A DNA stretch of 64,000 nt from Malacoraja senta (lineage: Eukaryota), in contig CM075996.1 of assembly GCA_038087875.1 (NCBI GenBank), forward strand, positions 4,838,001 through 4,902,000. The letters are read 5' to 3'. The notes under the pieces were generated by a model. That model made no database searches. It worked only from the letters and a program-made list of their open reading frames with translations, and was not told the origin of the DNA. The translations under genes and the position numbers were made by a program. Of this stretch, positions 21,531 through 63,357 are shown in pieces. Position 1 is the first letter of the stretch, and each line of letters opens with the position of its first letter.

Positions 21531-21610
21531 ATGGCTTATTACGCCGGTCAGAAGACGCTGCAGGAATTCCGCAGAGCGGAGAAGGAAGTGATTGGCGGCT
21601 TGTGTAGTGT
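21531..21610 (+). CDS. TFAP4: TFAP4-like exon 1 (donor position uncertain)
   Basis: ATG at 21531 (in-frame upstream ATG at 21513); MAYYAGQKTLQEFRRAEKEVIGGLCS. The first phase-compatible GT is at 21611; the orthologous boundary would be after 21607. Confidence 0.8.
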
Positions 21611-24600
21611 GTATCCACCACCATGTATCAATCCATGTTGGTTTGTTTATTGCACCAACAATGTATCAATGGAGGACCCGGGACAGACATTTAAACACGT
21701 GGGGGGAGAGGGGGAGAGGGGGCAGAGAGAGGGAGAGAGGGAGGAGAGGAGAGGGAGGAGGGAGAGGAGGGAGAGGGAGAGGGCAGGGAGAGGGGAGAGA
21801 GGGGAGAGGAGGGAAGGGGAGAGGAGAGAGAGGGGGGGAGGGAGGGGGAGAGAGGGGGCAGGGAGAGGGGGAGAGAGAGAGGGGCAGGGGAGGAGAGAAG
21901 AGAGAGGGGGCAGGGGGAGGGGAAGGGAGAGAGAGAGAGGGGCAGGGGAGGGGAGAGAGAGAGAGGAGGGAAGGGAGGGGAGAGAGAGAGAGTGCAGGAG
22001 GAGAGGAAATGACAATTCTCTCTCTCTCTCCCTTCTCATCCAAACACAGCTTCTCGCTTCTTCCCAAGACGGGGAAGCTCGTAGGAAATCCCAGGCTCGT
22101 CTGCACATCGGGACAAATCCAATCGGGATCACAGGCGTCCAATGGGAGGGAGGGAGGGATGAGATGCAAATATCCAACACACAGACCAGCACGTGGGACC
22201 AGCAAACCTCTGCAATCCCCCCCCCCCCCCTCCCGACCCCGTCTTTACAACCTCCTTCCTCAGCCTTTAACGATACACCGCCGCGCCACAGGCGTTCACA
22301 CCTCAACCTCCTCGGCGATTTTTTTTTTTTTCCCCGACTCTTAGATTATTTTCCTTCCTTCTCTGGGATCCCAAATCATGGCCGCCCTCGCTGGCTGATT
22401 TGTTTTGTTGCGTTTGCTGGGTCCGCCCACTTTTGCAATTTCGTTTTGGATTCCAAAGCAAAAACAAAAAAGTTACATTTCTTTCCTACTTTGTGTGTTT
22501 TTCTTTTTTTAAATTTTTTTTTAAATTTGTGTGCAATTCAAATTCCACCCCCCCCCCCCCCCCCCCCGTCCGATGCGTTGGGCCGAGCCCCCGCCTGCAA
22601 TGTGTTGTTGTTCCTCTGGAACAGCTCGGACCCTGTGAGTAGGCGTTTATAACCCGTGCTACATGTTGCCGCCACGTTACTCCAGCCGGGGAGGCGGTTG
22701 ATGTTGAGTTGGGATCCCCCCCTCTCTCTACTGAATTCGTCGTGCGTTTGTTTTTATCCCCCCCTCCCTCTCCAAAATATATAGTTTCTGGCATCTCGCC
22801 CACCCCCCAACCCAATCGCGATCCCGACGCCACTGTTTCCGAGTCGCCCAGTGTTGCAGGATTTGCAGGCGAGGAGAGAAAGCAGAACCATTGCGTAGCA
22901 CTGAAAGTGAAAACGCTCACAGTCATTAAATAAACCCCCCCTTTCATTTCGATTGGTCGGGCGCTGCAAATGCGACTCCATTCACATTAATTTCAGAAGC
23001 TTGACACAAAAAATGCTGGAGTAACTCACTCAGCGGGACACATCTGTGGAGAGAAGGGCTGGCCTGCTGGAGTGAGATGATTCCTTCCTGTGAGAGACAG
23101 CCCGGAATTAACCACAACCATTTATTTTGGGATTGAAACTTGTAGTGTTTTTTGGGATTTTGAGGGATGTTTTGTTAGTCTTGGGGGGGATTGAGTTGAG
23201 TTTATTCTACATTGGTTACAAATCCCGTGATCATATTTCCCGGGGAACTCATTGAAGTGGGATTTTTTGTTGTTGTAAATAACTCATTGAAGATGTCCGG
23301 GGAAGGCCGGAGGATTGTGAATTTTATGAATGGGGCTGAAGTTGACACAGCTGCTTGCGGATGCTATTGGCTGTGGCCTGGTTGTGACGGGCAGGAGTGC
23401 AAGGGGGCGTGAGCTGAGCCGCGGCTGGCTCTATGTTTATGTGCGTGTGTCAACAACACACTTGTCACACCCGCTCTTGTGTCAACTCCACTAACATCCT
23501 CTCCGCCCATCGCACCTCCACAAGCAACGTCGCTGACGTTTTGTTTAACGTTGCCTTGCATAAAATGCAAGTCTGAGGAAGGGGGCTCGACCCGAAACGT
23601 CGCCGATTGATTCCTTGAGCCGCTGACTTACTCCAGCATTTTGTGTCTTATCTTTTTTTTTTAATGTTGCCTTGCATACAATGCAAGTCTGAAGAAGGGT
23701 CTCGACCCGAAACCGTCACCCGTTCCTACTCTCCAGAGATGCTGCCTGACCCGCTGAGTTACTCCAGCATTTTGTGTCTATCTTTTTTTTAAAATGTTGC
23801 CTTGCATACAATGCAAGTCTGAAGAAGGGTCTCGACCCGAAACCGTCACCCGTTCCTTCTATCCAGAGATGCTGCCTGTCCCGCTGAGTTACTCCAGCAT
23901 TTTGTGTCAATCTTCGATTTAACCCAGCATCTGCAGTTCCTTCCTACACATTTGTGGAATTCCCTGCCACAGAGGGCAGTGGAGGCCAAATCACTGGATG
24001 GATTTAAGAGAGAGTTAGATAGAGCTCTAGGGGCTAGTGGAATCAAGGGATATGGGGAGAAGGCAGGCACGGGTTGTTGATAGGGGACGATCAGCCATGA
24101 TCACAATGAATGGCGGTGCTGGCTCGAAGGGCCGAATGGCCTCCTCCTGCATTTATTTTCTATTTTCTATAAAATCCTACACACACGGAGGATGCCGTTC
24201 GGCCTATCGTTGGTCCTTCAGCTAGCTCCACATTTCGGCTCGTTCCCCATTTCCAGATAGGATTTTTCCCTTTTGTGTGTGTGTGTATGTGTGTGTGTGT
24301 ATGTGTGTGTGTGTATATGTGTGCGTGTAGGTTGGCAAGTTACCACCGGGTTGTCCCCGCGATACTAATGGTTTTTTTTTAACACGGGAAGAGCATTTGG
24401 AGTTTAGAGGAAAAATGTGTCAAACGCTGGCAAATGGGGCTAGTTTGGATGGGCATTTTGGTTCGCATGGGCAGGTCGGGCTGAAGGGCCTGTTTCATAG
24501 AACACCAAACAGCAAGAGGGACAAGCTCTTCGGCCCACAATGTCCGTGCCAAACATGATGCCAAATGAAAGTAATCTCTGCCTGCACTGGTCCACATCCC

Positions 24601-27600
24601 TCCATTCCCTGCATATCCATGTGTGTAACTACAAGTTTCTTAAACATCAATACTGTATCTGTCTCCACTACCACCCTGTCTGGACTTGTAGACTTCAGAG
24701 ATACAGCTGTAAGGCAGCAACCAGGGTGGTCGCTGGTCGGCGCGTACTCGAAGGGCCGACCAGCGACCACCCTGTACGCTGCCACCATCCTACACCCTAG
24801 GCACAATTTACTATTTTACCAAAGCCAGTTAACCTCTTTGGAGTGTGGGAGGAAACCGGAGCATCCGGAGTAAACCCACGCGATCACAGGGGGGAAGGTA
24901 CAAACTCTGTACAGACATAGTCAGGATTGAACCCGGGTCTCTGGCACTGTAAGGCAGCAACTCTACCGCTGCGCCACCGTGCCGTCCCAAAATAAGAAAG
25001 TGAGCACTGTGTTTTTAGTGCTGCGTAACTCTGAATTTTAGTTGATTTTGTCCAAGAGATAAAAAAATACACAAAATCACTTGAAACCGACACAATATTA
25101 TAGTAAAATGTGGTACTGAGGGCCAAGTAATATGAACATTATTACTTAGCGACTTCCCCAGACCAATTATAATGGTACACCATCAGGACGTATCATGCTC
25201 AATGGCTGGTTTTCATGGGCTTGAAGTAACAGTTCATGTTACCTTGTTTGATAGAGTATCACTGGACAAGTATCAATGGAAGCGTTGCTTGTTGATTTCG
25301 AAAGCAACTCTTTTAAGCAGCCTTCCGTGGCGAAATGGCAGCATCCATTCTGAAGAGGCAATTGTATCTGATCAGCTTTCAAAAATTACAGAATGGAAAC
25401 GGGCCTTTCTGCCCACTGAGTCCATCAATCACCTGTTCACACTCTCGACACTAAATGTTGGAGCAGCTGCGCAGGTCAGACTCATGGAGAAAATGGACGG
25501 ACAAGGTTTCGGGTCAGGACATCGCCTATCCATTTTCACCACAGATGCCGCCTGACCTGCTGGGTTACTCCAGCACTTTGTGACTATCTTTGGTATAAAC
25601 CAGCATCTGCAGTTCCTTTTTTATCACCCTTTCACACCAGTTCCACTTTCGCAACCACTCCCTACGCACAAGGGGTCAATTTGCAGAGGGCCAAATAACC
25701 TACAAACCCCGCACGACTTTGGGATGTGGGGGGGGGGGAACCGGAGCACCCGGAGAAAACCCACCCGGCCACAGGGAAGACGTGCAAACTCCACACAGAC
25801 AACACCCGTAGTCAGGATTGAACCGGGTATAGAAACGTAGCAAATAGGTGCAGGAGGAGGACATTCGGACCTTCGAGCCAGCACCGCCATTCTTTGTGAT
25901 CATGGCTGATCGTCCCCTATCAATAACCCGTGCCTGCCTACTCCCCATATCCCTTGATTCCACTAGCTCCTAGAGCTCTATCTGACTCTCTCTTAAATCC
26001 ATCCAGTGACTTGGCCTCCACTGCTCTCTGTGGCAGGGAATTCCACAAATTCACAACTCTCTGGGTGAAAAAGTTTTTTCTCAACTCAGTCTTAAATGGC
26101 CTCCCCTTTATTCTAAGACTGTGGCCCCTGGTTCTGGACTCGCCCAACATTGGGAACATTTTTCCTGCATCTAGCTTGTCCAGTCCTTTTATAATTTTAT
26201 ATGTTTTTATAAGACCCCCCCCCCTTCATCCTATCTGGTGCGGTGAGACAGCGGGTCTACTGCGGGGGAGGTTTGCGTGTGAACGTTTTTTTGTGAACGA
26301 AGGGCCTCCGCTTCATGTTTCCCGGCTGCAGCCTGTCGAACATCCCGCTGACGCCGGAGAGCCAGCGCGACCACGATCGCCGCATCCGCCGGGAGATCGC
26401 CAACAGCAACGAGCGGCGGCGCATGCAGAGCATCAACGCCGGCTTCCAGTCGCTCAAGGTGCTGCTGCCCCACACCGACGGTGAGAAGCTGAGCAAGGTC
26501 AGTGTCACTCCACGCGGCCCGGCCCTTCCTTCCTCCCATTCACCGAGCTGCCGCTGCCTCCGCTCACTGCTGGACAAAGGCCTTTCCTGCCCCTAGCAGC
26601 AGGGCTCCCATTCAAACACTCTTAATTACATTTCCAGAACCTGTCTCATGAAATTCAAGTGATCGGAGCAGAATTGGGCCATTTGGCCCCTCAAGTCTAC
26701 TCCGCCATGGCTGATCTATCTCTCACTCCTAACCCCATTCTCCTGCCTTAGAAACATAGAAAATAGGTGCAGGAGCAGGCCATTTGGCCCTTCAAGCCAG
26801 CACCGCCATCCAATATGATCATGGCTGATCGTCCAGAATCAGTACTCTGTTGTGCAAGAAGGATCTGCACCTGCTGGTTTAAACTGAAGATAGACTGAAG
26901 AAGGGTCACGAACCAAAACGTCACCCATTCCTTCTCTCCAGAGATGCTGCCTGTCCCACTCAGTTACTCCAGCTTTTTGTGTCTATCATCAGTGCCCACG
27001 TTCCTGCTTTCTCCCCATAACCCTTGATTCCGTTGGCCCTAAGAGCTTGATCTAACTCTCTCTTGAATACATCCAGTGAATTGGCCTCCACTGCCTTCTG
27101 TGGCAGAGAATTCCACAGATTCACAACTCTCTGGCTGAAAAGGTTGTTCCTCGTCTCAGTCCTAAATGGCCCACCCCTTATTCTTAAACAGTGACCCCTG
27201 GTTCTGGACTCCCCCAACATCGGCCTTCTCTCCATGACCCCTGACACCCGTACTAATCATGTCACCCCCGACAGACCCGTGTAATCAACTGTGTGGTGCT
27301 ACGTTCAAGTTGAGGCCCTGTTTGTTTCCCCCAGCCTGGGTCTTTATTTACCTCCCATCCACTTCTTACCCCTCACGTAGGAATGTAGCGGAGATAGAGT
27401 TCGGGGGGAGAGTTCCCGGTGAACAGGGATTGTTCGACGTACCCTACAAAGAGGGGTGCACAGCTGGGGCCGATTCAAGTGCCCACGGCTACGCCTTGGA
27501 TTTGGAGGAAGTGGGTGGAGTCGAAGGAGAAGTTTATATTTAATGTAGCGGAAATAGAGTTCTGGATTTTTTTTCAACGTAGTGGACTGTAGCGTCTGAA

Positions 27601-30600
27601 GAAGGGTCTCGACCCGAAACGTCACCTATTCTTTTTCTTCAGAGATGCTGCCTGTTACTCCAGCATTTTGTGTCTATCTTCGGTTTAAACCAGCATCTGC
27701 AGTTCCTTCCTAAGAACAATCGAAGGTAGACAAAAATGCTGGAGAAACTCAGCGGGTGAGGCAGCGTCTATGGAGCGAAGGAATGGGTGACGTTTCGGGT
27801 CGAGACCCTTCTTCAGACCCTTCCGACGTATGTTCTGTTTATGGATTTTGGGTAGGTCTGATGGAAGGGTCTCGACCCGAAATGTCCCCTTTTTTTCTTC
27901 GGTGATGCTGCTTGACCCACTGAGTTACTCCAGCACTCTGCCCCCTGATAACTACTCTGAGCAGAGAGACCAGCAAGGTCCCAGGTCTGATCTCCAACCT
28001 CAGCCTTATGGCCTTTCAGGCATTCATCGCTGTGGACCCTTGTGAGGGAGGTCTCAGCTACAGGGGACCCTAATTTCAGATTGTAACTTATCTGTAAGAT
28101 AGTACCCCAGTATCTTGACTCTTCCAGAGGCAAGAATTAATGAACAATACTCTGCTTGTGTAGACAATAGACCATAGGTGCAGGAGTAGGCCATTCGGCC
28201 CTTCGAGCCAGCACCGCCATTCAATGTGATCATGGCTGATCATCCCCAATCAGTACCCCGTTCCTGCCTTCTCCCCATATCCCCTGACTCTGCTATTTTT
28301 AAGAGCCCTATCCAGCTCTCTCTTGAAAGCATCCAGAGAATTCCACACACTCACAACTCTCTGTGAGAACAAGTGTTTCCTCGTCTCCGTTCTAAATGGC
28401 TTACTCCTTATTCTTAAACTGTGGCCCCTGGTTCTGGTCTCCCCCAACATCGGGAACATGTTTCCTGCCTCTAGCGTGTCCAAACCCTTAACAATCTTAT
28501 ATATTTCAATGAGATGCCCTCTCATCCTTCTAACCTCCAGAGTGTACAAGCCCAGCTGCTCCATTCTCTCAGCATATGACAGTCCCGCCATCCCGGGAAT
28601 TAACCTTGTAAACCTACGCTGCACTCCCTCAATAGCAAGAATGTCCTTCCTGTGTAGGAAGGAACTGCAGATGCTGGTTTACACCAAAGATAGACATCAA
28701 AAGCAGGAGTAATTCAGCGGGACAGACAGCATCCTTGGAGAAAAGGAATGGGTGATGTTTCGGGTTGAGACCCTTCTTCAGACTGAGAGTCAGGGGAGAG
28801 GGAAAGTAGAGGGATGAAAATGTACAGAACAAATCAGAGCCGGCACCGATGGCCAAAGAAAGGAAGAGCCCACAATGGTCCATTGTTGGCTGTGAAAGAG
28901 GTGATATGGAGGGATATGAACAGTGAAACTAGCAGGATGACTAGGGTGGGGGAGGGATGGAGAGAGAGGGAATGCCGGCGTAAAACCCCTGTCCCACGGT
29001 ACGAGTTCATTCCAAGAGTTCTCCCCGGGTTTGCCCTGCTTTGAACTCGGAGATTTACGGTAATGGCCACTCGTCGGTACTCGGGGCTCTCGTGGACATG
29101 TTTCAACATGTTGAAAAATCTTCACGAGTCTTCCCGTGCTTACCTGCTGTTAGCGAGTCTTCCCGAGTACCTGCTGTTCACGTTACAAGCCGGTAAGAGA
29201 CTTCCCCGAGCTCCGACGTACCCGCTACGTTCATTCCCCATGCTTACCACGAGTTTGATTTTTTAAAACTCGGGAGAGCTCTTGGAATGAACTCGTACAG
29301 TGGGACAGGGCTATTACTCCGCACGGCTCTGTGGACGGGAGATCTGACCAAAGAGGACACGTTGTGTGTTGATGAGGACGATGCGTGTAGTTTAGATGGA
29401 CTTCAATAAAGCCTTTGATGAGTTCCTACATCGGGGATTGCTCCTAAATACAAGAGCATAGCCATTCAGGGTGATTTGACAAACAAATTGTCCTGGTGTT
29501 AGGAAGCAGGGGAAGGCGATTCACATAGTTGCAGCATTTTACAGCAGGGAAACAGGCCCTTTGGCCCAACTCAGCCATCCCACACCAGGCCCTCTGTCCC
29601 ACTGTGTCCATGCTGACCATCTATCTCAGCTAGTGTTTGGCCCATATCCTTCTAAACCTTCACCATCCATGCATTCTAACTTGCCCGTGTTTGGCCCATA
29701 TCTTTCTAAACCTTCACCATCCATGCATCTGCCCGATTGTCTTTTAAACATTGTGTTTGTACCCGTTCTTACAGCTTCCTCTGATAGCTCGTTCCATACG
29801 CCCAACCACCCTCCATGTGGGAAAAGTAATCCCTCGTGTCCGCACCCTCTCACTGTAAATCTGCACCCTCTAAATTTAGACTGCTCTGTCGGGGAGAAGA
29901 ATACTTATTTCGTGGCAGTCGTGATTTTATACACATCTGTGAGGTCATCACTCAATCTAGAAAGCTCCAGGGAAAATAGTGCCAGCTTCTCTTTTTGAGT
30001 TCTCGATTCCTGGTAACGTCCCCTGTGAATCTTTTCCGTGCCTTTTCCATCCTAATGATATTCTTTGCAGCAGGGCAACGCAGAACTGCGCACAATACTC
30101 CCCAAGTGTGGTCTCGTCGAGGTCTTGTACAGTCGCAACTTAATGTCCCAACTCCAGCGCTCAATACCATGAGCGGTAAAGACAAATGCGCCCAAATTGA
30201 AGCGTGGGAGGAAACCGGGGCACCCGGGGGAAACCCACACGGCCACAGGGAGAACGTGCAAACTCCATACAGACAGCACCCATAGTCGTGATTGAAGGCA
30301 GGTCTCTGGCGCTGTGAGGCAGCAACTCTAATGCCGTGCCACCCGTTGCCCTACTGCCTCTGTGGGGTGCTATATATAAATGCAGTGTTGCGGTGAAGGC
30401 GATAGAATCTCGGGAGCAAATGCATTGCCCGTCTCTCTCCCTGCAGGCTGCGATCCTACAGCAGACGGCAGAATACATCTTTGCCCTGGAGGAGGACAAG
30501 ACACGGCTGATGCAGCAGAATGCACATCTGAAGCGGCTGGTGCAGGTGAGCTGCAGCAAGCATGGATATCGCAGCACAGGTGGTGCTGCAGTAACGCAGT

Positions 30601-33600
30601 GGTCGCATTTCTCACCAAGATAGAGCGTGGCGTTTCAAAAATCAATTCTGCCTGTTGGGAACCGGGAGTTGGGAGTCAACGAGTTTTTTAGACTCGCAAC
30701 AACAAAGTTGTTTTTCCCTGCGGGACTTTCAAAAGCAAAGGTTTTATTTAATCACATTAAAGTAATTTTCGTTGCTGGAAGCTAAATGAAGGTCTTCATT
30801 ACATTGTTTAGTGGAGTAACATTGGCCAAGTGTCACTGGAAGTGATTGCTTGGCAATTTCAATGGCTTGCCAACGCGTACGACTTTGGGACGTGGGAGGA
30901 AACTGGAGCACCAAGGGGTGAGGGCAGGGGACCCACAGCGGTCACAGGGAGAACATGCAAACTCCACACGGAGAGCATGGGAGATCAGGGTGTTCACGGG
31001 TCACTGGTGCAGCGAGGTTGCAGCACGATTGGGCGGCACAGTGGTAGAATTGCTTCCTCACAGCGCCAGAGACCCGGATTCCATACTGACTACGGGTGCT
31101 GCCTGTATAACCATATAACCATAACAGCACGGAAACACGCCATCTCGGCCCTTCAAGTCCGTGCCGAACACTTTTGTAAATCAAATTTTTATTTATTTAT
31201 TTATTTATTTATTATTTATTTATTTTTTACTTCCCCCTAGTCCCATCTACCTGCACTCAGACCATAACCCTCCATTCCTTTCCCGTCCATATACCCATCC
31301 AATCTATTTTTAAAGGATAAAATCGAACCTGCCTCCACCACTTCCCCTGGAAGCTCATTCCACACAGCTACCACTCTCTGAGTAAAGAAGTTACCCCTAA
31401 TGTTACCCCTAAACTTCTGTCCCTTAATTCTCAAGTCATGTCCCCTTGTTTGAATCTTCCCTACTCTCAATGGGAAAAGCTTATCCACGTCAACTCTGTC
31501 TAACCCGCTCATAATTTTAAAGACCTCTATCAAGTCCCCTCTTAACCTTCTGCGCTCCAAAGAATAAAGACCTAACTTGTTCAACCTTTCTCTGTAACTT
31601 AGTTGCTGAAACCCAGGCAACATTCTAGTAAATCTCCTCTGTACTCTCTCTATTTTGTTGACATCCTTCCTATAATTAGGCGACCAAAATTGTACTCCAT
31701 ACTCCAGAATTGGCTTCACCAATGCCTTGTACAATTTTAACATTACATCCCAACTTCTATATTCAATGCTCTGATTTATAAAGGCCAGCACACCAAAAGC
31801 TTTCTTTACCACCCTATCTACATGAGATTCCACCTTCAGGGAACTATGCAGTTATTCCTAGATCCCTCTGTTCAACTGCATTCCTCAATTCGCTACCATT
31901 TACCATGTACGTCCTATTTTGATTTGTCCTGCCGAGATGTAGCACCTCACATTTATCAGCATTAAACTCCATCTGCCATCTTTCAGCCCACTCTTCCAAA
32001 TGGCCTAAATCTCTCTGTAGACTTTGAAAATCTACTTCATTATCCACAACACCACCTATCTTAGTATCATCTGCATACTTACTAATCCAATTTTCTACAC
32101 CATCATCCAGATCATTGATGTACATGACAAACAACAGTGGACCCAACACAGACCCCTGAGGCACCCCACTAGTCACCGGCCTCCAACCTGACAAACAGCC
32201 ATCCACCATTACTCTCTGGCATCTCCCATTCAGCCACTGTTGAATCCATCTTGCTACTCCACCATTAATACCCAACAATTGAATCTTCTTAACCAACCTT
32301 CCATGAGGAACCTTGTCAAGGGCCTTACTGAAGTCCATATAGACAATATCCACTGCTTTGCCCTCATCAATTTCCCTAGTAACCTCTTCGAAAAATTCAA
32401 GAAGATTAGTCAAACATGACCTTCCAGACACAAATCCATGTTGACTGTTCCTAATCAGACCCTGCTTATCCAGATGCTTATGTATATTATCTTTAAGTAT
32501 CCTTTCCATTAATTTGCTCACCACTGACGTCAAACTAACAGGTCTATAATTGCTAGGTTTACTCTTAGAACCCTTTTTAAACAACGGAACAACATGCGCA
32601 GTAGGCCAATCCTCCGGCACTATTCCCGTTTCTAATGACTTTCGAAATATTTCTGTCATAGCCCCTGCTATTTCTTCACTAACTTCCCTCAATGTCCTAG
32701 GGAATATCCTGTCAGGACCTGGAGACTTATCCGTTTTCATATTTTTCAAAAGTGTCCGCACCTCCTCTTCTTTGAATCTCATAGTTTCCATTGCTACTCT
32801 GCTCGTTTCCCTTACCTCACATAATTCCATAATCCTTCTCCTTGGTGAATACCGAAGAAAAGAAATTGTTCAATATCTCCCCCATCTCTTTTGGCTCTGC
32901 AGATAGCTGTCCACTCTGACTCTCTAATGGACCAATTTTATTCCTTGTTATCCTTTTGCTATTAATACAGCTGTAGAAACCCTTTGGATTTACTTTCACC
33001 TTACTTGCCAAAGCAACCTCATATCTTCTTTTAGCTTTTCTAATTTCTTTCTTAATATTCTTTTTACATTCTTTATACTCCTGGAGTTTGTACGATCTCC
33101 CCGTGACCTGCGTGAGTTTTCTCCGGGTACCCCGGTTTCTTCCCACATTCCAAAGACGCGCAGGTTTGTAGGTTAATTGGTTTTGGAAAAATTGTAAAAT
33201 TGTCCCTAGTGTGTGTAGGATAGTGCTAGTGTACGGGGATCACTGGTCGGCATGGGCCGAAGGGCCTGTTTCCGCGCTGTATCTCTAAACTAAATTACGT
33301 GGCACTGCCGTATTCCATGATTCATTTCCATGACGGCTGCAAGTTCAGATTTGCCGCACGACCTAACGAATCCTCTCGGATCCGGAGAAGCTGCCGTCCC
33401 GGCGCTCGGCAAGTCCGTGCGGAGTGAATCCGTGCCTTTTGTTGAGTCAGCGTTGGACAACGTGCTTCCCTCTGCCTTTCCCAGGAGTACTCCGGCTCCT
33501 CCCCGAAGCGGAAGCGGGGAGACGAGTCCGACGAGGGAATCGGGTCCCCGGACTCTGCGGACGAGGAGCTGGCCGAGCTGCGGCAGCTGCTGGAGAAGGA

Positions 33601-36580: not shown

Positions 36581-36622
<42 letters not shown>

Positions 36623-50200: not shown

Positions 50201-53200
50201 CATTTCGTGCACCAAATTAATACTAAATTAGTTTTATAAAATTAGTTTGAGTTTGGTTTACAAAATTACTGTATTTCAAAACAAAACATGCCAGTTAAGA
50301 AATAAGCTCCAAGTGATTTAGTTGAATTAATATACATTTTTAATATCTCCATTGCAGCAAAATTCTAACACTGCTGACAGGAATAGTTTTACTAAAAAAG
50401 ACAGCACTATACCTATTGTACAAAGTGCATGTATATTAAAAGTTGTCGTCTTATATTAAGTTTCTGTTGATGGAGGTATACACGGTACAAATTGGGATTA
50501 AAGGTGATGTAGTTTTAAGTAGAGCCATGGATCCCAGTCACCGATATGATCCAGAGACTTTTGTTACATGTAGCTATGGGCAAGCAAAGATTTCATAATC
50601 CAAAACTCATTGACATTCATCAGGAATTGCATGTAAAAAGACACTTGGCTGAGCAGATGAAAATAGGTGATATCCAGAAACATTCCAGCTTGAAACAGGA
50701 ATGTGGTAAAACAAGACGCCAACACCTTGCCACTTACTTTGCGCGCTTTCTCATGCTCCTCTTTTGCTTTTTTTGCACGCTCCATTCTCTCCTTGAGAGC
50801 TTTCTCTTCAGATTTCCTTTCGTATTTTCTTCTGTGCTCCATTATTTTTTGAGCCTAAAAGACACGTTGCAACATTCAGTACAAATCCCCGGTGTGCACA
50901 GTTACAGTCACTGGAGATATACAATAGGTTAAGAGCCTCGCGTGTTTTCATAAGGACAGTCAGAAAGCAAAGAACCTAGACAGAACCTCCATTTGCAGAA
51001 GTATTTTCATTGGGTTTATATACAGATCACACAGCCATGAGAGACATGTACTATGACATGTATGTGGATTACCTACTCTCCTTCAGTACTAGGGGGGGGG
51101 GGGGGGAGTACATGGGGAAAAGAATCACACCGCACCGTTTTGCTCAAAATCCACAGCTATTCAGTTCTACGCTGTTAGACTAATGGAATTCTCTTTGCCA
51201 ATAGCATGCTGTACAAGTTCTGCTCCTGGGATCCATAAACACACAGGAGCTTCCCTGAATTATGATGAACCTGACTTATGAAAACCCACTACACAAATTC
51301 TCCTATATATTGTTAAAGCACTTCTCAAGCTAAATATTTCATGCCATCCATTAATATACAGTGTGTATTCCATTAGTTTAATGATGGGGAGTGTTGTTCA
51401 ATGAAATTGAAGAATTACACCAAATGTGATCCCATAAAGGTAGTCACAGAAAATGGACATTTCTGACTTCTGGAGAAATTGTCTTACGGATTGTTCTCAA
51501 GAGCGTAATCCACACGTAATCCATATCCTAATGACAGAGGAGGTCATTCACCCCAACGGTTTCTGCTGGCTACCAGTAACAATGCCCCACCTATCGCCCT
51601 ACAATCCATTTACATGCATATTCACCAACTCTCTCCCCGACTTTCTTGCCACATGAGAGGTACTCCAGCCGCTGACAATTAATCTACCGACATGTCTTTG
51701 GGATGTAGGATGAAACTAGGGAAAACCCACACGCTGTCACAAGACAGACATACAAACTCCACACACGCACAGGTCAAGATCAAACCTGGGTCGCTGGAGC
51801 CCAGAGGCAGCAGCTGAACCCCGTTGCATATTCACTGCGCTGCTGCAGCTGTTGGAATTTCAGGTTCAGATTGAACACAGTCTTCATAAAAAAATGCCAT
51901 AACAAAAAAAACTGTGGGTTCTGTATCAGCTTCTGATTAGGAGAGGCAAAGAATTGAGAATGCATAAATAACGTTGAGTTCAGTTTATAGATACAGAGTG
52001 GAAACAAGCCCTTCGGCCCAACAAGTCCGACCAATGATCACCTGTCCACTAGTTCTATCTTGGACACGAGGGATAATTTACAGATGCCAATTAAACTATA
52101 AACCTGCACATCATTGTACATTCTCCGTGACCGCATGGTGCTCCCGTTTCCTCCCACTTTCCAAAGACGTACAGGTTTGTAGGTTTGCCATCATTGGTTT
52201 CTTTAAATTGTCCCTCATGTGTAGGCTAGGACTAGTGTATGCTTGGTTGCTGGTCGACGTGGACTCGGTGGTCCAAAGGGCCTGTTTCCATGCTGCATCT
52301 CTAAACTAAACTTTTAACAAAGCCACTTCAACCAGAAGGTTGGTTAATGGGGTAAACTTTAAGGAACAAACTAAAAGAGGGCCACAGACGGGATGGAGGG
52401 GCCGCGAGGCTAAGGGAGAGAATGCCAGAGTTCAGGCATTGACAGGCGTAATGGCAAAAACAATTAAAACCATGGTTGTGCATGTTGTCAGAAGTGGAAC
52501 GCATAGATCTTAGTGGGTTGGTGTTCTGTTATAGAAAAGAGGCGAGAAGAACGAGATCTAAAAATTGATGAGAATTTGCATTGTATGCAAAGGCCTGTTG
52601 GAAGGCAAGGTGAAAATCACTAGTATTTCCCCCAAGGCAGCTGTTAGAGGCACCAATTCCACTGCTAATGCCCTACAGCAGCTTGGTTTACTGCCTTGCA
52701 CAAATCGGACTCGCAGCCAAGAATGACTGCGTTTCAAACAAATTCATTGGCTGCAACGTGTGTGCGCATGTCACGTAATCTTTCATTGTCTCCAAACCAA
52801 ACAGGTTTTTAAAGAAAAGAAAAAACTGCAGCCGGGACAGTCACTTACTCGAGGTTGTACCTCCTTCAGCAGGGCACTAGTATCATCATCGTAATCCAAT
52901 TTACAGGCCATTGCCAAATCCAGCGCTGCTTTCTCCCAGTGACCAAGTAGCCTATTTGAAAATGGCAAAACACGGGAAGGTTAACAAATGGAATCGTCAA
53001 AACCAGTTTTGGTAGTTGTTTGAGCATCCAATCGATCCATTATCACCATGTTGGCACTGATAGTTGAGCAGCTGGTTCACAGAGGGTCTGATTCTCACCT
53101 TGGATGCTGTCTGTGTGGAGTCTGCACGTTCTCCACGTGACCATGTGGGTGTCCTCCTTTATCCCAAATTTGTAGGTAAATTGGCCTCTAAATGGCCCTG

Positions 53201-56200
53201 GGCATAGGGAGTGGGATAATACTGGTGATGTGAATGGGTGATCGATGATCAGTGTGGATTCGGTGGGCTGTTTCCATGCTCTATTGTTTTTAATCAATCA
53301 ATTTGAGCAAAAACAAAATAAAACACTCAGTGCTGAAGTACCTCAGCAGGTCAGGCAGCATCTCCTGGAGTATCCACGTTTTCCAGAGATGCCGCCCAAC
53401 CCGTTGAATTACTCCAGCACTTTCTGTAAGTCATCATCTGCAGTTCCTTGTGTGTAATCAATTTGAGAAAATGGAGATCAGAGGTCATTCTGCTTTCAAC
53501 ATAAACCCAGAATGCAGATCTATCATTTTTATCCTTTCCCAATTTCTTGTTCCAAAATGACAGGCTCGTGAACATGCCCAGGATTCTGCTGTCCAGGCCC
53601 TGATTCGTAACACTGTTCAAGCAGAATTAGGACACAAAGTGCTGGGGTAACTCAGCAGGTCAGGCAGCATCTCTGGAGAATGTGGATAGTAGACGTCTCG
53701 AATCCAAACCTTTTTGGAACCAGACGATGCAGTTAGGAGAATCCCGTACTGAAAATTGAATTGGCATTTGATGTTCTGTGCCTTGTCCAATGGTCAGAGC
53801 CTGCTAATTTTGACTGCCACATGCGTATTCCCATGGTGGAAAGTACTGAGCAGCCACTATACTTGCAGCACCAGCCCAGAGCCTTATGGAGACGAGGAAG
53901 GATGCATTTATACAATGCTGCTTGAAAATAGATCACATTTAATGTCTAAACATGATTTGTGCACAATTTCTGTCAATCTTGTGCATCCCAAATGATGACG
54001 CAGTTAAAATACTTCACTTACTGCTGCTTGATCCAGATTATGCAGCTGCATTTTTTTTAAAAGCTGGAGGGATAATGTATAACGCATAATTTAAACTAGC
54101 AAATAGCAACATGGAAGAAGCAAAGAGGGGCCTTCAGTTTAATGAGCAAACCACAGGAAAGCAGTTTGTGTGAAGCATAAATATCAACGCCCACAGGTCA
54201 GGGTGAATGGTGCGCAAATACTGTATACACAGATCGTGGTATTCAATAGAATCTAGAAGCCCTATTTCACATCAATACCCACATACGGTCTTTCCAGATT
54301 TGATTGTTTCTTATATGCTGCATGTTCCAAATACCGTACAGGATTCTCATCCCTTTCCACAGAGTTGTCATAATGCTTCCACCCTCGAGCCCTTCCTCAC
54401 CTGTGTGCTTTTCCCCTCCACTTGTAAGGTTGCGCTGAATCAGGGTTGATGCTGATTGCTTTGTCACAGTCCCGAATGGCTGCATTGGGCTTCTGCATTT
54501 TCACATACACGCTGCGAAATAGAAAAAGATTGCTTGGTGTCGTTGGAAAAAGTGTTACTTGAACAATAATCAATCTAACATGCTTAGTGCCATGTTAACT
54601 CCCTGAGAATCATTTGTAGCTCTCCAATAAACTGCCCGGAAAACCATTCAACTTTATGAATCAAAGACTTTGTTCAATTTTTGAGTTTGGGAATCTTAGT
54701 GAAGGGAGCTGCAAAGATGTAACAATTGATCTCCGATTCCAAATTAGAGGGGGGAATAAAACAAAACAGAATCCAGGGTCCTGACTGCTATCTGGTGACC
54801 TTTACTGGAAAGGGCAAGGCACCACTGGGTAAAGATGGGATCAATGTCAGAGCTAATCAGTGTTTTTCAGATGTGTAGAAGGAAGAAAAGTAAATGTTAA
54901 AAAACATTCAGGGATTGTTATGCTGTGGCACAATGGGACATCCAAAACAATGTGGCAGCATTAACTTGCTGTGCTTACAATGGGCCAGCACGGCAAGTTA
55001 ATGCTGTGCATATTAATCTCTCCGAACAGTGGAGAAAAGTCACAATCCAACTGTGGGACTGACAGAGGGGAAAGTGAAAACTCAAAGGAGAAATTACAGT
55101 GGATCTCTTCACTTCTGTTGATAGGCTCACAGCAAGATGGGCAAATGCATGGGTCAAGATGACTTCATCCGCTTACAGAAACACATTCATCGGCAAGGAG
55201 CAAAGATCTTGAGCAAAATTGAATCTACAGCTTACTTGGCAGGTTGTGAAACCTCTCCAGGTTAATGAAATGCGGCGAGCTCTACAAAGAATGTTCAACT
55301 TGCTTAATAGTTTCAAATGAGTATTCCCTTTCAGATGCATTCATGTACATGGCAGACAATGGACTACAACCATGACATCTGTAGGGTTTTGTTTTTTTAA
55401 TATAAACATTCAGCTCCATTATTTCAACCAGGTCCCCAGACATCAAATATTTTCACAAGGGCATACGAGCAAATACCACCATTTGGCAACAGACTGACAA
55501 CAGGATGACATCACCAAAAGCTTCCAAAACTTACACCAGACAAGTGTCTATGAACCCATCCCTTTTAAAAAAGGACTCAAAGGTTCTTGGTCTTTCTGCA
55601 CTGTGTTTAAAGGGGGACTTCAAGGATGAAACTTCTCCGCAATTTAGTCTAGAATTACACAAAAGCGCAATAGACAAGTGGTTGTTTTTTTTAAACACCC
55701 CATTTTTATACCACGCTCACAAACAAGGACATTTACAAAAACTACCCAGATTGTAAAATGACAATACACCTGGCAGAGGAGCAAGAACTCAAGGCCCCCA
55801 TCCTCCTTCTGCAGGAGAGATACAAGATTTCCAAACTTAGCTGTGAGATGCCGCTGAAGCCTGATATGTGACCCAGCCTTCATCATTTCCCTAACCCAGT
55901 TTCCAATAGGCATGCAATGCGATCCAAGCTTCTGATTCTAAGAAGCAATGCATGTGGTCTTTGCTTTATTCTACTTGGCTCTCAGACTGCTGATCAGACT
56001 TCACTGGCACCACTTGTCAAGTGGGTGAGCAAAACCTGCACCCAAATGCCAAGACGCTTTCAAGAATACATCCATTCTATACTTTACCTGGCTCGCTTAG
56101 CATAAAGAATGGCCAGGCGTGGGTTCAACTTAATGGCGTCTGTGAAGTGTTCGAGTGCCTTTTCAAGATCCCCTGTATTGAGGAAAACAAAACGTTTAGA

Positions 56201-59200
56201 CACCACGGGCTAGTGTGGGATTTAAGAACATAAGAGGCAGGAAGTTTCCAGGCACAAAGTAGAAAATAGGAACTGCAGATACCGGTTTACCAAAGAAAAC
56301 CACAAGATGCTGAAGTAACTCAGAGGATCAGGCAGCATCCCAAATATATTCTGTTTTAGACAATGTTTAACTCGAAGCCACAGATCTGAGACCAGTTATT
56401 TAGCTTGATTTGCTTATAATTCCTATTCTTCATAAAATCTTGATGCCCAGGATGCTGAATTATTTAGAAACAAGGAACTGCATGCAGAAAGTGGTTTACA
56501 CAAAGTGCTGGAGTTCTCCAGAGGACCTGCAGAATTACTCCAGCCCTTTTAGTCTAAATTATTTAAAGTTAGTCACACTGCTTCGTCCATTTTACAGAAG
56601 TCATGCAATTTTTTTTATTAACTCTTCCCACACAGGCCTTTCAGCCCATCAGATCCATGCTAGCTGCCATGGAGTGATCCCATCAGTCTCATTCCCCCCA
56701 CTCTCTCTATCTCCCTGTAATCATGCGACTCATTCTCTCACATGCCACTAACTGCCCTTGACTTTGTTTTGTTACTGATCCACACGAAAGGGTAATTTAC
56801 AGCTGTCAGTTAACAACTTTGAAATCCAACAAGGAGATGAGAAACTTCTTCACCAAAGAATGGTTCAAATGTGAAACATTACAGCAAGAAGTCAAGGTGG
56901 CTGGCGTGGATGTGGTTAGAGATGCTAATCAAATGAGTCAGAAAGTTGTATAACAGTTTAGTTGAGAGGGTGACAAGACAGGAGGAAGATCATGCACAGG
57001 CACAGACCAGTTGTGCCAAATGGCTTGTGTCTGTGCAGGTAACAACTATTCTCGTTTTCACATCCACCACTTTGCTGAACCAAAGCCTTGCCCACTCCAT
57101 CAATAACCATTTCCCTTCTATTGCACGTACCTTCTCCCAAAGCATTGATGGCTTCGGCTTTCTTCTCATTTGCCTGATCCATTAATTCCTCAGTCACCTA
57201 AAACAAGGGAACAAAGTGTCAGATAACGATCAGCAGTGACGGTTACAAACTTTGCAACTTATAAACAGTAGGTTGCAGATCATTGTTCACAGATGAAAGA
57301 TTACGTAACCTCCATGACATAGAATGACCAGGCTTTAGGGGGGGGGGGGGGGCTGCTGGTGCCCACAGAACAGCATCTCCGGCAGAATCGAGTTTCCTCG
57401 AGACGGCAGTGATGGAGACTGGGAGGAAGAACACAAAGGTGGAGGAAAAAATCTTGGCATGGTTATTTGATAATTGCTCGAATACTTCAAATGGATTCAA
57501 TTTCAATGGATATTTAAACACGTCAAGCAAGTTGTGTAAAATTACTGGCAACTATCTAAGACTCATTATTTTGTACTTCACCGTCCACAACCCCACCCCT
57601 ATCACTATTTACAGTTCAAGGGGCAAATTAGAAACATTATGCCAGCTAGCCATTGGCAAATTGGTAAGAAATCAGAGCTAATGACAGTTATTTCCACAAG
57701 GGAAGTACATTTAGTGTAAATGCATATCTCAAACACTTCCTGACTTCCAATTCTATATTTGTTCTGGAAACAAACATTGCCATCTCTCCCCAGACACTCA
57801 TTCTCTGTAGGCTTTGTATGAAGCCAACATTTGAAATTCTCTAATAATTATTTAGATACCAATGGATTAATGCAGGACAATCAAGATTTTTCCATTTGAA
57901 AAGCAAGTTTCATATCCTCCACCGGGAGGTAATTTTGCCCCATTGCTCCATGTTAGATGGGAGTATTCCAACACAGAATGCACACCAAAGAAAGATGTAC
58001 AACGTCCACACTTCTTGCTAACATGATAACTGTGGCTAAAAGCTAGCCTGTATTTTTTTTAAACCGGGAACACGTTAACGTTTTCAGAAGGGCATGAAGA
58101 AGAAAAAAAAGGCTCACCTCAATACTGTCATCTCCCATTTCAATAGGTTCTTCAGGATCTGCCTCAATCACACCTTCATCGTCAATCTCTGTGAAGAACA
58201 AAATACATCCACATGAATATACTTGAAACAAATACATTACAGGACATTGCTGTAATTTCTCCCGTGGTTTGATTTGCTGCACCCCACCACTGACATACTT
58301 CATCAAGGGACCAACATCCTGCCGTAGAAATGTCCATGTACCATTTATCCTTATATTTCCTCACATTGAACCATTTCAACCCATCTCTGCCAGTTCATTG
58401 AAAAAATCCTATTCTCCCACTAACCTATTCTTCCTCCCAGATATGAACACTCATCTACTTAAAGTTCCAAATAACCTAGCAGCTCGAACATCATTGGGGA
58501 CGTGGAAGGAAACAAACAACAGGCTGTGAGAGGGAAAGGGAGGAAGCCACATGATCACAGACAGAAAATGCAACGGTCAGGATTGATCTTGGGTCACTGG
58601 AACTGCAAGGCAGCAGCTCGACTTGATTTCAGCCATTCTACTATCTATGATAAATCTTTGCAATTAGCTGCCAAACACAAAGTGCTGGAGGAAATCAGTG
58701 GGCCAGCCAGCACTGAGGATGGAATGGACAGGCAAAGTTTTGGTTCTTCTTCAGATTGTAATTAGCTGATTGCATAAATGCTTAATTCTGCTGCTTGATA
58801 TGGGCGGTGAAGTGGGGGGGTGGTGCTAATGAACTTATCTCAGCCATAATTATGATTGGTTTAGGTTTATTATTATTGTTACGTGTACCCACGGCAGTGA
58901 AAAGCTTTGTTTTATGTGCTATCCAAACAGACAGATATACCATAAATACAGTGCCCGCCATAATGTTTGGGACAAACCTAATAAATGAGCAGCCAAGTCA
59001 ATCACCCGATCTGAACCCAATTGATAAATGAGCAGCCAAGTCAATCACCCGATCTGAACCCAATTGAGCATGCCTTTTATATGCTGAAGAGAAAACTGAA
59101 GGGGACTAGCCCCCAAAACAAGCATAAGCTAAAGAAGGCTGCAATACAGGCCCGGCAGAGCATCATCAGAGAACTCACCTGGTGAGTCCATGAATCGCAG

Positions 59201-62200
59201 ACTTCAAGCAGTTATTGCATGCGACGGATAGGCAACAAAATACTAAACATGACTACTTTCATTCACATGACATGGGGGGGACTATGTATAAACAATGCTG
59301 TAATTTCGACACGGTGAAACAAAAATGTATAAAAATGGCCTTTATTAAAATCTGACAATGTGCACTTTAAGCACATGTGATTTTTTTCTATTACAAATCT
59401 CAAATTGTGGAGTACAGCGGCAAATAAATAAATGATGGGTCTTTGTCCCCAGACATTATCGAGGGCACTGTAGACACAATTGGTTCAAACTCAAGCACTG
59501 TAGATAGAGCAAAGGGGAAGATACCAAGTGCAACACTCACCAAGTTCACTCTCCTGGCTTTCTGATGCTTGCTCTGGAGATGAAACCGGCGGTTCCTTCG
59601 CTTCTGTATTTGTTTCCTGCAAAAAATTTCAAGTTATTAGTCTGTTCTTTCAGAACAACATTTATGCTCACAAGAAATTTAGTATCATATTACACCACAT
59701 TAGAAATAACACTGCCACGTTTCACCCCAGCATAAAATACTCATGATCAGCACGGCAGAAACTGTCCTCCATCTCTCTCTCTTCTTTTCTCATCTCTCAG
59801 TGCCCAGTGGTTCCTCATTGCCCAGCTACATTCACATTTCTCTGGGCTCCCTCCCATTTCTCCTCATGCCTTTAACTTAATAAAATGCCAACATTGCTTC
59901 CTTCATCGCACAGGCTGCCGAGGCTTTCACCCCATGCTTTTGATAATCATGGTTTCTAACTCACTCATTGATATCTCCCAGCCCTGGAAATGTAACCTAT
60001 TCAGAATTCTACTTTCTACACCGTTACACATCAAGTCCCAGTCACCAACTTTTGTTTCAATCATTCAAACTGGCTATTTGTGAGGCAACACCACCTTAAA
60101 TCTTCAACCTTTTTTCTCTCCTCTGCATTCAAGCCGATCATTCCTACTTTTTGTTTCCCTTCCGTCTTGACATTCTGAAAATTCATTTCACAAAGCATTT
60201 TATCGCCTAATTTAATATCTCTTTACAAGGCACACATTTTCTTTGCTAAAGCTACACAGTGCCTTAAAGGTTTAGTGATATTTTATGTTTGAATTCCCCG
60301 GCAATTTAGTTACTAACTTCAGATCATACAACACAGCCTCAAGAGAATCTTGCAATTTCCTCTCTGTTGCCAATAGTTTTATTAACAACAGACTAGCACC
60401 AAAGCACATTCTTACACAAAACCTTACCCGGAGTCACTCACTGTCTAGTTACCACGTGCTTGGTAATGATAAACATCCAGGATGTGTGACCTGGTCAACT
60501 AATCCTCTTCCCACATGTACACGCTTTGTAAGAGAGACAGATGATGACAAATGAGGGGTCCAAACACGTCAATTTACTTTCTCTACTTTAGGAGGATATG
60601 CGGAGCCATAATTACAACTGGAACCAATTAGCTTGCATCACTTCAAGCATACTCTCTGCAATGGGAGCTGGGAAAGTTATGTTATGAATTAACCCTGACA
60701 GTACCCTCCATAATGTTTGCGACAAAGACCCATCATTTATTTATTTGCCTGTGCTCCACAATTTGAGATTTGTAATTTAAAAAAAATCACATGTGTTTAA
60801 AGTGCACATTATCCGATTTTATTAAGGGGTATTTTTATACATTTTGGTATCACCATGTAGAAATTACAGCTGTGTTTATACATAGTCCCCCCTCCATTTC
60901 AGGGCACCATAATGTTTGGGACACATGGCTTCACAGGTGTTTGTAATTGCTCAGGTGTGATTAATTGCCTCCTTAATGCAGGTATAAGAGAGCTCTCAGC
61001 ACCTAGTCTTTCCTCGAGTCTTTCCATCACCTTTGGAAACTTTTATTGCTGTTTAGCAACGAGGACAAAGGTTGTGCCAATGAAAGTCAAAAAAGCCATT
61101 ATGAGACTGAGAAACAAGAATAAAACTGTTAGAGACACCAGAGAACTTTAGGCTTACCAAAATCAACTGTTTGGAACATCATTAAGAAGAAAGAGAGCAC
61201 TGGTGAGCTTACTAATCGCAAAGGGATAGGCAGGCCAAGGAAGACCTCCACAGCTGATGACAGAAGAATTCTCTCTATAATAAAGGAAAATCCCCAAACA
61301 CCTGTCCGATAGATCAGAAACACTCTTCAGGAGTCAGGTGTGGATTTGTCAATGACCACTGTCTGCAGAAGACTTCATGAACAGAAATATAGAGGCAAGA
61401 TGCAAACCACTGGTGAGCAGCAAAAATAGGATGGCCGGGTTACAGTTTGCAAGAAGTACTTAAAAGAGCAACAACAGTTCTGGAAAAAGGTCTTGTGGAC
61501 AGATGAGATGAAGATTAACTTATATCAAAGTGACGGCAAGAGCAAAGTATGAAGGAGAGAAGGAACTGCCCAAGATCCAAAGCATACCACTTCATCTGTG
61601 AAACACGGCGGTGGGGGTGTTATGGTCTGGGCATGTATGGCTTCTGAAGGTGCTGGCTCACTTATCTTCATTGATGATACAACTGCTGATGGTAGTAGCA
61701 TAATGAATTCTGAAGTGTATAGACACATCCTATCTGCTCAAGTTCAAACAAATGCCTCAAAACACATTGGCCGGCGGTTCATTCTACAGCAAGACAATGA
61801 TCCCAAACATACTGCTAAAGCAACAAAGGAGTTTTTCAAAGCTAAAAAATGGTCAATTCTTGAGTGGCCAAGTCAATCACCTGATCTGAACCCAATTGTG
61901 CATGCCTTTTATATGCTGGAAAAAAAATTGAAGGGGACTAGCCCCCAAAACAAGCATAAGCTAAAGATGGCTGCGATACAGGCCTGGCAGAGCATCACCA
62001 GAGAAGACACCCAGCAACTGGTGATGTCCATGAATCGCCGACTTCAAGAAGTCATTGCATGCAAAGGATATGCAACAAAATACTAAACATGACTACTTTC
62101 ATTTAGATGACATTACTGTGTCCCAAACATTATGGTGCCATGAAATGGGGGCACTGTGTATAAACACTGCTGTAATTTCTACATGGTGAAACCAAAATGT

Positions 62201-63357
62201 ATAAAAATGGCCTTTATTAAAATCTGACAATGTGCACTTTAACCACATGTGGTTTTTTCTATTATAAATCTCAAATTGTGGAGTAGAGGCAAATAAATAA
62301 ATGATGGTTCTTTGTCCCAAACATTATGGAGGGCACTATATGAATTATTTTTTAGGCCTCAAGTCAGGTTATTTTGCCCAGATCCATTCTGTGTACCACA
62401 CCATATAAATTAAGCATGTTCGGAGAGTCTGCACGTTTAGTAGGATTAAGATTAGTCGTATTTAGCACAACAGTACCCGGAATAAGAGACTTCATGTGGC
62501 ATAAAAAGAGATGCTGAGATTTTCCATGACAGAAATGCTCAAATCAATCAGGTTTTGGTGGACAGGTAGTTTTGCAAATTTAAGTCATGAGAAAAACTTT
62601 GTGTTGGGGGAAATTCAATGAGCTATGAAGAGATAGAATGCACTGCCTGCAGGATGATGAAAGCACCTTCAAAGATTCAACAATATCACAACTGATTGAA
62701 CAGTTTTTCTGTGCTTTTTGATTCAATGATAACCATGGATTATCCTGAAAACAAGAAAATCCCAGCTTCCTTCTGCAAGCAATGCATGGATTTGGAGGAA
62801 CGTTCTTAGATAACCACAAACCACAGATTATACAGGAATGCAAGTTAATGTGCAACTATATGAACTGTCATAGTTTAGTCCCATGATAGTAGCACATACA
62901 GCCTTTGATGGCACAAAACTCACTGCTGGAACACCCAGTGTATGGTTCAAGTTGGGATACAAATTTCACACTGGTCTTTCACCTTTCTCTTTAAAAACAA
63001 AATAGTAAAAAGCCATCTGTCCACACCAGGCCCCTTTAAAATGCTGCATAAAAGACCAACAAAAATTCTTACCTGCACCAGGTATCTCTCAAGAACATGA
63101 GGCACCATCTAGTATCATAACACTTACATATCCTTTAGCCCATTCAATGATATGAATCCTCATGGGAAAAGTTTTTTTTGTTTAATTACAAAGAACAGCC
63201 TTTTCCTCCCACATTCCAAAACCTGAACAAATTCTCCTGGAAATTGGTCAGGAGATCCCTTTTTCAGATTCACTAAATGCTGACTAAAATATCAGGTACC
63301 TTTGGTGCCTCCGGGAATTTCGGGTGTTCTGCTGGAGGAGGTACAGTTGCTCCCATA
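47149..63357 (-). CDS. ST13: Hsc70-interacting protein (Hip/ST13), coding exons 2-12; exon 1 lies beyond the window end
   Basis: Eleven minus-strand exons with GT-AG sites encode the acidic region, three TPR repeats ([63 protein letters not shown]), the charged coil, GGMP repeats and the DP/STI1 domain ([37 protein letters not shown]). There is an apparent 1-bp frameshift in exon 11. Confidence 0.96.
47856..48033. mobile_element. PIF/Harbinger-type MITE
   Basis: TAA|agggcctgtcccactt ... aagtgggacaggccct|TAA. Confidence 0.85.
48296..48428 (-). CDS. ST13: ST13 exon 11 (GGMP repeats, DP start), one base short
   Basis: cttttag acceptor, gtaatg donor; [26 protein letters not shown](fs)[18 protein letters not shown]. 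Confidence 0.9.
49314..49362 (-). CDS. ST13: ST13 exon 10
   Basis: tgtttcag acceptor, gtttgt donor; [16 protein letters not shown]. Confidence 0.87.
50738..50854 (-). CDS. ST13: ST13 exon 9 (charged coil)
   Basis: cttttag acceptor, gtaagt donor; [39 protein letters not shown]. Confidence 0.95.
52849..52951 (-). CDS. ST13: ST13 exon 8 (TPR)
   Basis: caaatag acceptor, gtaagt donor; [34 protein letters not shown]. Confidence 0.95.
54401..54511 (-). CDS. ST13: ST13 exon 7 (TPR)
   Basis: tttcgcag acceptor, gtgagg donor; [37 protein letters not shown]. Confidence 0.95.
56088..56172 (-). CDS. ST13: ST13 exon 6 (TPR)
   Basis: atacag acceptor, gtaaag donor; [29 protein letters not shown]. Confidence 0.95.
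57131..57197 (-). CDS. ST13: ST13 exon 5
   Basis: gttttag acceptor, gtacgt donor; [22 protein letters not shown]. Confidence 0.93.
58118..58188 (-). CDS. ST13: ST13 exon 4
   Basis: cttcacag acceptor, gtgagc donor; [24 protein letters not shown]. Confidence 0.93.
58949..59470 (+). mobile_element. Internally deleted copy of the same Tc1 element
   Basis: TA|cagtgcccgccataatgtttgggacaaa ... gagggcactg|TA; retains the transposase C-terminus (SPDLNPIEH) and the right inverted repeat. Confidence 0.9.
59541..59616 (-). CDS. ST13: ST13 exon 3
   Basis: ttttgcag acceptor, gtgagt donor; [25 protein letters not shown]. Confidence 0.85.
60699..62338 (+). mobile_element. Tc1-family DNA transposon with long IR-DR termini; transposase inactivated
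   Basis: About 230-bp inverted repeats (cagtaccctccataatgtttg.. / ..caaacattatggagggcacta, followed by TA). Transposase remnants [16 protein letters not shown] and [20 protein letters not shown] give DD34E spacing with E>V, plus stops and frameshifts. Confidence 0.93.
63300..63357 (-). CDS. ST13: ST13 exon 2
   Basis: ctttacag acceptor, gtacct donor; [19 protein letters not shown]. Confidence 0.85.

Follow-up and report, generated by a model that had tools for sequence, protein, structure and literature searches.

The 64,000-nucleotide stretch of Malacoraja senta DNA analysed here (assembly GCA_038087875.1, contig CM075996.1, positions 4,838,001 to 4,902,000 of the forward strand; hereafter the window) carries, next to ST13, a gene for a transcription factor of the AP-4 type. 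We consider it very probable that this gene is a chondrichthyan paralogue of TFAP4 ('TFAP4B'), the ohnologue on the EP300 side, which most likely split off at the first genome duplication (1R), survived in chimaeras, sharks and rays and disappeared early from bony vertebrates. The observations behind this are the gene structure, a clade of its own, nine species with both copies, matching synteny of the two segments and transcripts in skates. AP-4 has been regarded as a single-copy factor that pairs with itself and acts downstream of MYC, and a second copy means that the family once had two members in vertebrates. The gene itself is already known: NCBI labels it 'transcription factor AP-4-like' in elasmobranchs and the available part of a 2023 little skate supplement (PMC10115646) numbers both copies, this one as Tfap4-1, both names being automatic labels only. 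No text describing the paralogue's origin or features was found in literature searches, one of which gave only synteny papers on noggin. The paralogue was found neither in the supplement of PMC10208646 nor in 12 of the 24 files of PMC8455134, the available text of PMC7483449 holds no mention of AP-4, and the hagfish supplement (PMC10972751) has one TFAP4 row.

The gene occupies positions 21531-39922 on the + strand, where seven coding exons splice into an open frame of 357-358 residues, with AG at all six acceptors and a clean GT at five of the six donors:

21531-21607/21610, + strand: exon 1; an in-frame ATG lies further upstream at 21513
26332-26497, + strand: exon 2; basic region (identical to TFAP4), helix 1 and loop
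30447-30545, + strand: exon 3; helix 2 and leucine zipper 1
33485-33631, + strand: exon 4; putative stretch of basic residues like a nuclear localisation signal, DEGIGS degron, shortened start of zipper 2
35032-35175, + strand: exon 5; end of zipper 2 and Q-rich region
37151-37300, + strand: exon 6; HHPTVIV and TIV motifs; its start is 15 nt short relative to other skates
39632-39922, + strand: exon 7; paralogue-specific C-terminal tail, psi-K-x-E site (IKEE) and stop codon

The HLH Pfam domain matches exon 2 alone (E 4e-12). Together with the splicing and the position of ST13 on the - strand, this match bears out the initial annotation, which had described a seven-exon AP-4-like gene lying tail-to-tail with ST13. 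Introns 2-6 are of phase 0 and the annotated isoforms of the paralogue (P0002, P0007, P0009, P0012 and P0013) skip exon 3, 4 or 6 in frame; when exon 4 is left out, the protein loses the degron and most of zipper 2. Intron 3 is largely filled by a long fragment of a long interspersed nuclear element (31237-33239, - strand) bearing a reverse transcriptase, which we take to be CR1-like, and shorter pieces lie in other introns.

Identities were calculated against five canonical TFAP4 proteins, from two sharks, gar, coelacanth and rat. The basic region is identical to that of TFAP4 and the bHLH (basic helix-loop-helix) differs at only 2 of 52 positions; basic region and HLH together reach 96% identity, and 94% to amphioxus. 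Identity is 83-87% in the TIV block (83-90% against vertebrate AP-4s), 62% in zipper 1 and 49-51% in zipper 2, and falls to 25-30% in the Q-rich region and 8-9% in the C-terminal tail. The first 17 residues are 35-41% identical, with 12% for coelacanth, where the gene model starts with a different exon. Both leucine zippers are present after the HLH and their a/d cores match TFAP4 at 14 of 16 positions. The first heptad of zipper 2 is missing, and most of the divergence of this zipper consists of an 8-residue deletion and of changes at outer positions; seven of its eight a/d core residues are unchanged. The near-identity first noticed in the bHLH and TIV motifs is thus real, and so is the strong divergence of N-terminus, Q-rich region and C-terminus; zipper 2, which had been listed with them, is diverged only in part, with a deletion and a conserved core.

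The paralogue, by its domains a member of the AP-4 (TFAP4/Cropped) family, resembles TFAP4, a bHLH leucine-zipper factor, MYC target and repressor of p21 and p16, in its basic region, HLH, two zippers, TIV motif and CACGTG boxes in intron 1. It is unlike TFAP4 in its overall identity of about 50%, in the deletion at the start of zipper 2 and in its 94-residue tail, which is unrelated to the acidic tail of 49-68 residues of TFAP4; it adjoins ST13 and EP300 whereas TFAP4 adjoins CREBBP and GLIS2. Compared with the Leucoraja (little skate) protein, the window protein is 98% identical. The DEGIGS degron, found in 16 of 16 paralogues and common to paralogue and TFAP4, is the E135/S139 site of the beta-TrCP work cited in the available text of PMC7914591. 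A psi-K-x-E site is present in the tail of 14 of 16 paralogues, against none of 25 canonical tails, and eight shark TFAP4s carry such a site inside zipper 2. From its consensus, we take the tail site to be a SUMO site. Paralogue tails are 93-95 residues long, compared to 88-104 in amphioxus, starfish and lamprey, and only the length of the tail looks ancestral. A terminal RPGVIV is conserved in 50 of 75 non-vertebrate AP-4s, and canonical vertebrate TFAP4 has a weakly similar internal QRRAVIV. Scored with a profile built from those 50 proteins, the end of the paralogue (PSVLV) was rejected as a retained form of this terminus: the 16 paralogue tails gave p values of 0.04-0.50, the canonical QRRAVIV 0.003-0.08.

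Database searches separated the paralogue from TFAP4. The last exon alone matched 14 proteins among 88 candidates, all of them elasmobranch 'AP-4-like', and with the full-length protein these elasmobranch proteins scored 527-772 bits versus at most 372 bits for canonical TFAP4 (best 120 of 1,365 matches). Two profiles used to sort 378 fetched AP-4-like proteins classed 42 as paralogue-type, 36 of which are named and all chondrichthyan while 6 are unnamed and skate-like. The paralogue occurs in at least 20 named chondrichthyan species, including the chimaera Callorhinchus. In trees built from 32 of the 49 rows of a first tree, and run with and without tails, the paralogues, including the window gene and Callorhinchus, formed a clade with 100/100 support in both runs; the window gene stood outside the clade of shark and bony-vertebrate TFAP4 (99/98, and 98/94 with tails removed), in agreement with the separate clade expected of a second AP-4. 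The vertebrate clade, with amphioxus outside, had support of 97/94 and 98/96. On these trees the duplication appears older than the shark/bony split and younger than the amphioxus split. Both copies were found in nine species, eight sharks and the little skate, and in six of the eight sharks they lie on chromosome-scale sequences of different length (21.8 vs 50.9 Mb in the whale shark).

Two Callorhinchus milii entries labelled 'transcription factor AP-4' (P0311 and P0168) are the paralogue, with a more degenerate zipper 2 and Q-rich region, and no canonical chimaera TFAP4 was among the matches listed. This is a case of hidden paralogy, the NCBI chimaera 'AP-4' being the paralogue and not the TFAP4 orthologue. 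The sole catshark paralogue among the matches listed is a partial and diverged protein of Scyliorhinus torazame (P0250), and none from S. canicula or Mustelus was among them; the paralogue may evolve fast or decay in ground sharks. One divergent, unnamed protein, P0279, is closest to teleost TFAP4s (63-65% identity) and was left out of the paralogue count.

The genomic neighbourhood points in the same direction. ST13 records with placement were seen for eight chondrichthyans, one of which, Heterodontus, lacked a paralogue record for comparison. In five species (Callorhinchus, Rhincodon, two Chiloscyllium and Hemiscyllium) the accession numbers of the two genes follow directly on one another, from which we infer adjacency, and in two more (Stegostoma and Carcharodon) the genes lie on sequences of equal length. 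Since the linkage recurs in seven other species, a mis-assembly at ST13 in the window is unlikely. We take the human order to be ST13-XPNPEP3-RBX1-EP300. According to the available part of the little skate supplement (PMC10115646), Tfap4-1 lies at 7.34 Mb of Leri_37C, with Crebbp-2 at 7.17, Rbx1-2 at 7.27, Xpnpep3 at 7.30 and Gcat at 7.57 Mb, and Tfap4-2 at 19.93 Mb of Leri_20C, with Crebbp-1 at 19.76, Adcy9 at 19.82 and Glis2 at 19.96 Mb. Each Tfap4 copy is thus about 170 kb from a gene of the CBP/p300 pair. The window gene is of the Tfap4-1 type, because the sequence bearing the Leucoraja 'AP-4-like' gene and the 37th scaffold both measure 13,149,398 bp. With Crebbp-2 read as EP300, the paralogue segment EP300-RBX1-XPNPEP3-ST13-TFAP4B-GCAT mirrors CREBBP-ADCY9-TFAP4-GLIS2. 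The initial annotation had proposed that the window gene is the AP-4 copy of the EP300-side segment and that a more conserved TFAP4 should be linked to GLIS2, SRL and CREBBP; the separate clade and the paired synteny agree with the former, and in the little skate, a relative, such a TFAP4 lies by CREBBP, ADCY9 and GLIS2. In the available Supplementary Table 3 of the little skate study, LER20 is assigned to H-1alpha and LER37 to H-2beta. These are different products of 1R if the table is right, in which case the split goes back to the first genome duplication. As a separate observation, canonical tfap4 and st13 lie on sequences of equal length in Seriola aureovittata, Menidia and Thalassophryne, as would fit the two paralogous segments having fused later; asking in teleosts whether the two genes share a chromosome would be misleading.

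No paralogue-type protein of bony vertebrates was found among the matches listed (the best 120 of 1,365, and the best 150 of 1,029 among representatives), and the paralogue is likely absent from them by this sequence comparison. The absence first claimed for mammals therefore seems to extend to all bony vertebrates. The available part of PMC10115646 reports 19 ohnologues that chondrichthyans retained and bony fishes lost, among which the paralogue may or may not be. Like these ohnologues, and like noggin4/ankfn1 on the same segment (PMC10869764, available part), it shows differential loss following genome duplication; the segment is of the beta type, on which losses are more frequent and evolution is faster. 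Retained shark ohnologues being a known class, the finding is moderately surprising: an ordinary event in an interesting family.

Both copies are transcribed in skates, another point on which the first expectation held. In the available part of the little skate pectoral-fin differential table, obtained from bulk tissue, the two genes have base means of 296 and 499. Three full-length paralogue proteins of 368 residues come from contigs of 1.6-1.8 kb, and since the gene spans 18 kb we take these to be spliced transcripts of related skates. The anterior/posterior direction in the fin was not used: both copies share their sign with Pax9, Alx4 and Mycn but also with Hand2. Candidate regulatory sites lie around the first exon:

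21373-21396, no strand: two CAGCTG (AP-4-type) E-boxes upstream of the start codon, candidates for autoregulation
21696-21701, no strand: first CACGTG (MYC-type) E-box, intron 1
22190-22195, no strand: second CACGTG (MYC-type) E-box, intron 1

Two upstream CAGCTG boxes were seen versus 0.16 expected (p 0.013), and two intron-1 CACGTG boxes versus 0.075 expected (p 0.004), both for regions chosen afterwards. MYC is described, in the available part of the source, as acting on human AP4 via intron 1, and through its own intron-1 E-boxes the paralogue may be MYC-induced.

AP4 recognizes the site CAGCTG and is described, in the available parts of PMC3763444 and PMC7914591, as exclusively homodimeric, its zippers enforcing this choice. 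Given its identical basic region, the paralogue would bind CAGCTG as a dimer like AP-4, and it may be turned over through the same beta-TrCP degron. The zipper cores match those of TFAP4, so that homodimers are probable, and mixed dimers too where both proteins are expressed; on balance we lean slightly towards a protein that forms homodimers and, where co-expressed, mixed dimers with TFAP4. No AP-4 structure was found among 15 PDB matches, and the whale-shark mixed dimer was predicted. It scored 0.69 versus 0.00 for the best control, with runs having at least 68% of their contacts in common and with a partner pLDDT (predicted local distance difference test) of at least 67, a mark reached by 51 of 78 solved pairs and by 2 of 108 mismatched pairs. 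In the model, helix 2 and both zippers are in register. By sequence, no repulsive e-g pair arises when the paralogue pairs with TFAP4. The test has a weakness, as close cousins of a true partner passed in 10 of 12 cases; the pass therefore measures likeness to a self-pairing protein, not binding or preference. A heterodimer, as suggested in the initial annotation, is structurally plausible on this model but stays a hypothesis. The different tail and the shorter zipper 2 would then act on cofactor use or on stability at the shared sites and leave the DNA target as it is. On our best reading, the paralogue would be a further AP-4 that binds CAGCTG and has the same inputs as TFAP4 but another output arm.

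A competing possibility, to which we give somewhat less credence than to mixing, is that the origin is as above but TFAP4 and the paralogue stay apart, each forming homodimers in its own cells or stages and the pair being kept for dosage or for split expression. It draws on the published exclusivity of AP4 (PMC3763444, PMC7914591, available parts), on the loss of the first heptad of zipper 2, on the count of attractive e-g pairs, which is four in the paralogue homodimer versus three in the mixed dimer, and on fin expression being known from bulk tissue only. However, the partners examined for that exclusivity came from other bHLH families, and the species had a single AP-4. Core positions hardly differ between the two proteins, and helix 2 and both zippers line up in the model. 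If mixing occurs, a broader scenario can be drawn, which we regard as unlikely though worth stating: early vertebrates ran the MYC-to-AP-4 axis with two AP-4s and cartilaginous fishes still do, with both genes responsive to MYC and co-expressed in the growing fin, and with a mixed dimer that retunes the output at CAGCTG through a SUMO-modifiable tail and a shorter zipper 2. Under that scenario, the 'homodimer-only' AP-4 of bony vertebrates would result from the loss of its partner. TFAP4 and the paralogue are a ready pair in which to study the divergence of dimer specificity and of tail function that follows genome duplication.

Returning to the preferred origin, an EP300-side ohnologue split at 1R, several points weigh against it. 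The paralogue has a long stem branch (0.33-0.68). A tree constrained to make the paralogue orthologous to bony TFAP4 was disfavoured, not rejected (p 0.083), and rejections of a shark-only duplication by the approximately unbiased (AU) test were modest. None of the lamprey placements was rejected (p 0.26 and 0.47), so that the trees by themselves do not separate 1R from the second genome duplication. The 1R dating depends on one published table with question marks in other rows, and the identification of Crebbp-2 as EP300 is our reading of the label from its RBX1 and XPNPEP3 neighbours. As to absence from bony vertebrates, the chimaera paralogue itself fell outside the best 120 of 1,365 matches, and clusters at 50% can hide a paralogue that is 57-60% identical to TFAP4. 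An origin by the second genome duplication, or by segmental duplication in the jawed-vertebrate stem, would agree with the single lamprey cluster and the single hagfish gene row seen, and a gnathostome-only clade with lamprey outside is the placement that gave p 0.26; we nevertheless hold it improbable, the skate chromosomes of the two copies being assigned to H-1alpha and H-2beta.

A further concern is the state of this particular copy, whose exon-1 donor is abnormal in the assembly, which also speaks against the straightforward reading of the gene. Relatives have their exon-1 junction after 21607; the donor there is TG, a non-canonical sequence; a weak in-frame GT follows 21610, three bases beyond the conserved junction, and a better-looking GT one base before the junction shifts the frame. 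Exon 6 is without five residues (15 nt) that three other skates have, and no separate micro-exon for them was found in intron 5. The family could therefore be real and the copy damaged in this species, the exon-1 donor lost and the nearby out-of-frame GT in use, but we give this little weight. The window protein is 98% identical to its little skate counterpart, the weak in-frame donor is present, and the three 368-residue skate-type proteins from short assembled contigs retain the junction. Moreover, in the adjoining ST13 the GGMP-repeat exon has a run of five Gs at 48351-48355 (- strand) where the repeat needs six; this one-base frameshift is probably a homopolymer error of the assembly. The loss in this run suggests that the assembly drops Gs, which makes an error a likelier cause of the donor anomaly than a real loss.

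The weakest alternative, a duplication within cartilaginous fishes followed by transposition and by fast evolution pulling the copy to the base of the tree, could explain the long stem branch and the restriction to chondrichthyans among the matches listed, but is hardly credible, as forcing the two chondrichthyan copies together was rejected (AU p 0.045, and 0.018 with tails removed) and as a transposed copy is unlikely to have landed 170 kb from the CREBBP paralogue, matching the distance between TFAP4 and CREBBP.

The paralogue is flanked in the window as follows:

2-10470, + strand: five exons of an FN3-containing (fibronectin type III) gene, upstream of the AP-4 gene on the same strand; fn3 E 0.06 (weak), fn3 clusters 0.93
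20415-20614, no strand: scaffold gap of 200 N between the ANKFN1-like exons and the AP-4 gene
47152-63357, - strand: ST13 (Hsc70-interacting protein); its 11 exons here start at about residue 37 and include the stop

The stop of ST13 at 47152 is separated from that of the AP-4 gene by 7,229 bp, and no assembly gap lies between the two genes. The ATG at 63357 was rejected as the start of ST13, being internal and aligned with about residue 38 of shark ST13; the first 36 codons, at the 5' end, were not found within the window. We presume the FN3-containing gene at 2-10470 to be ANKFN1-like. No further exons of it were evident by eye in 10470-20414, before the gap, and its 3' half may be missing, truncated or inside the 200-N gap. 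A copy of ankfn1 has been reported near noggin4 and gcat (PMC10869764, available part), and the upstream FN3 gene fits this neighbourhood, though across the gap.

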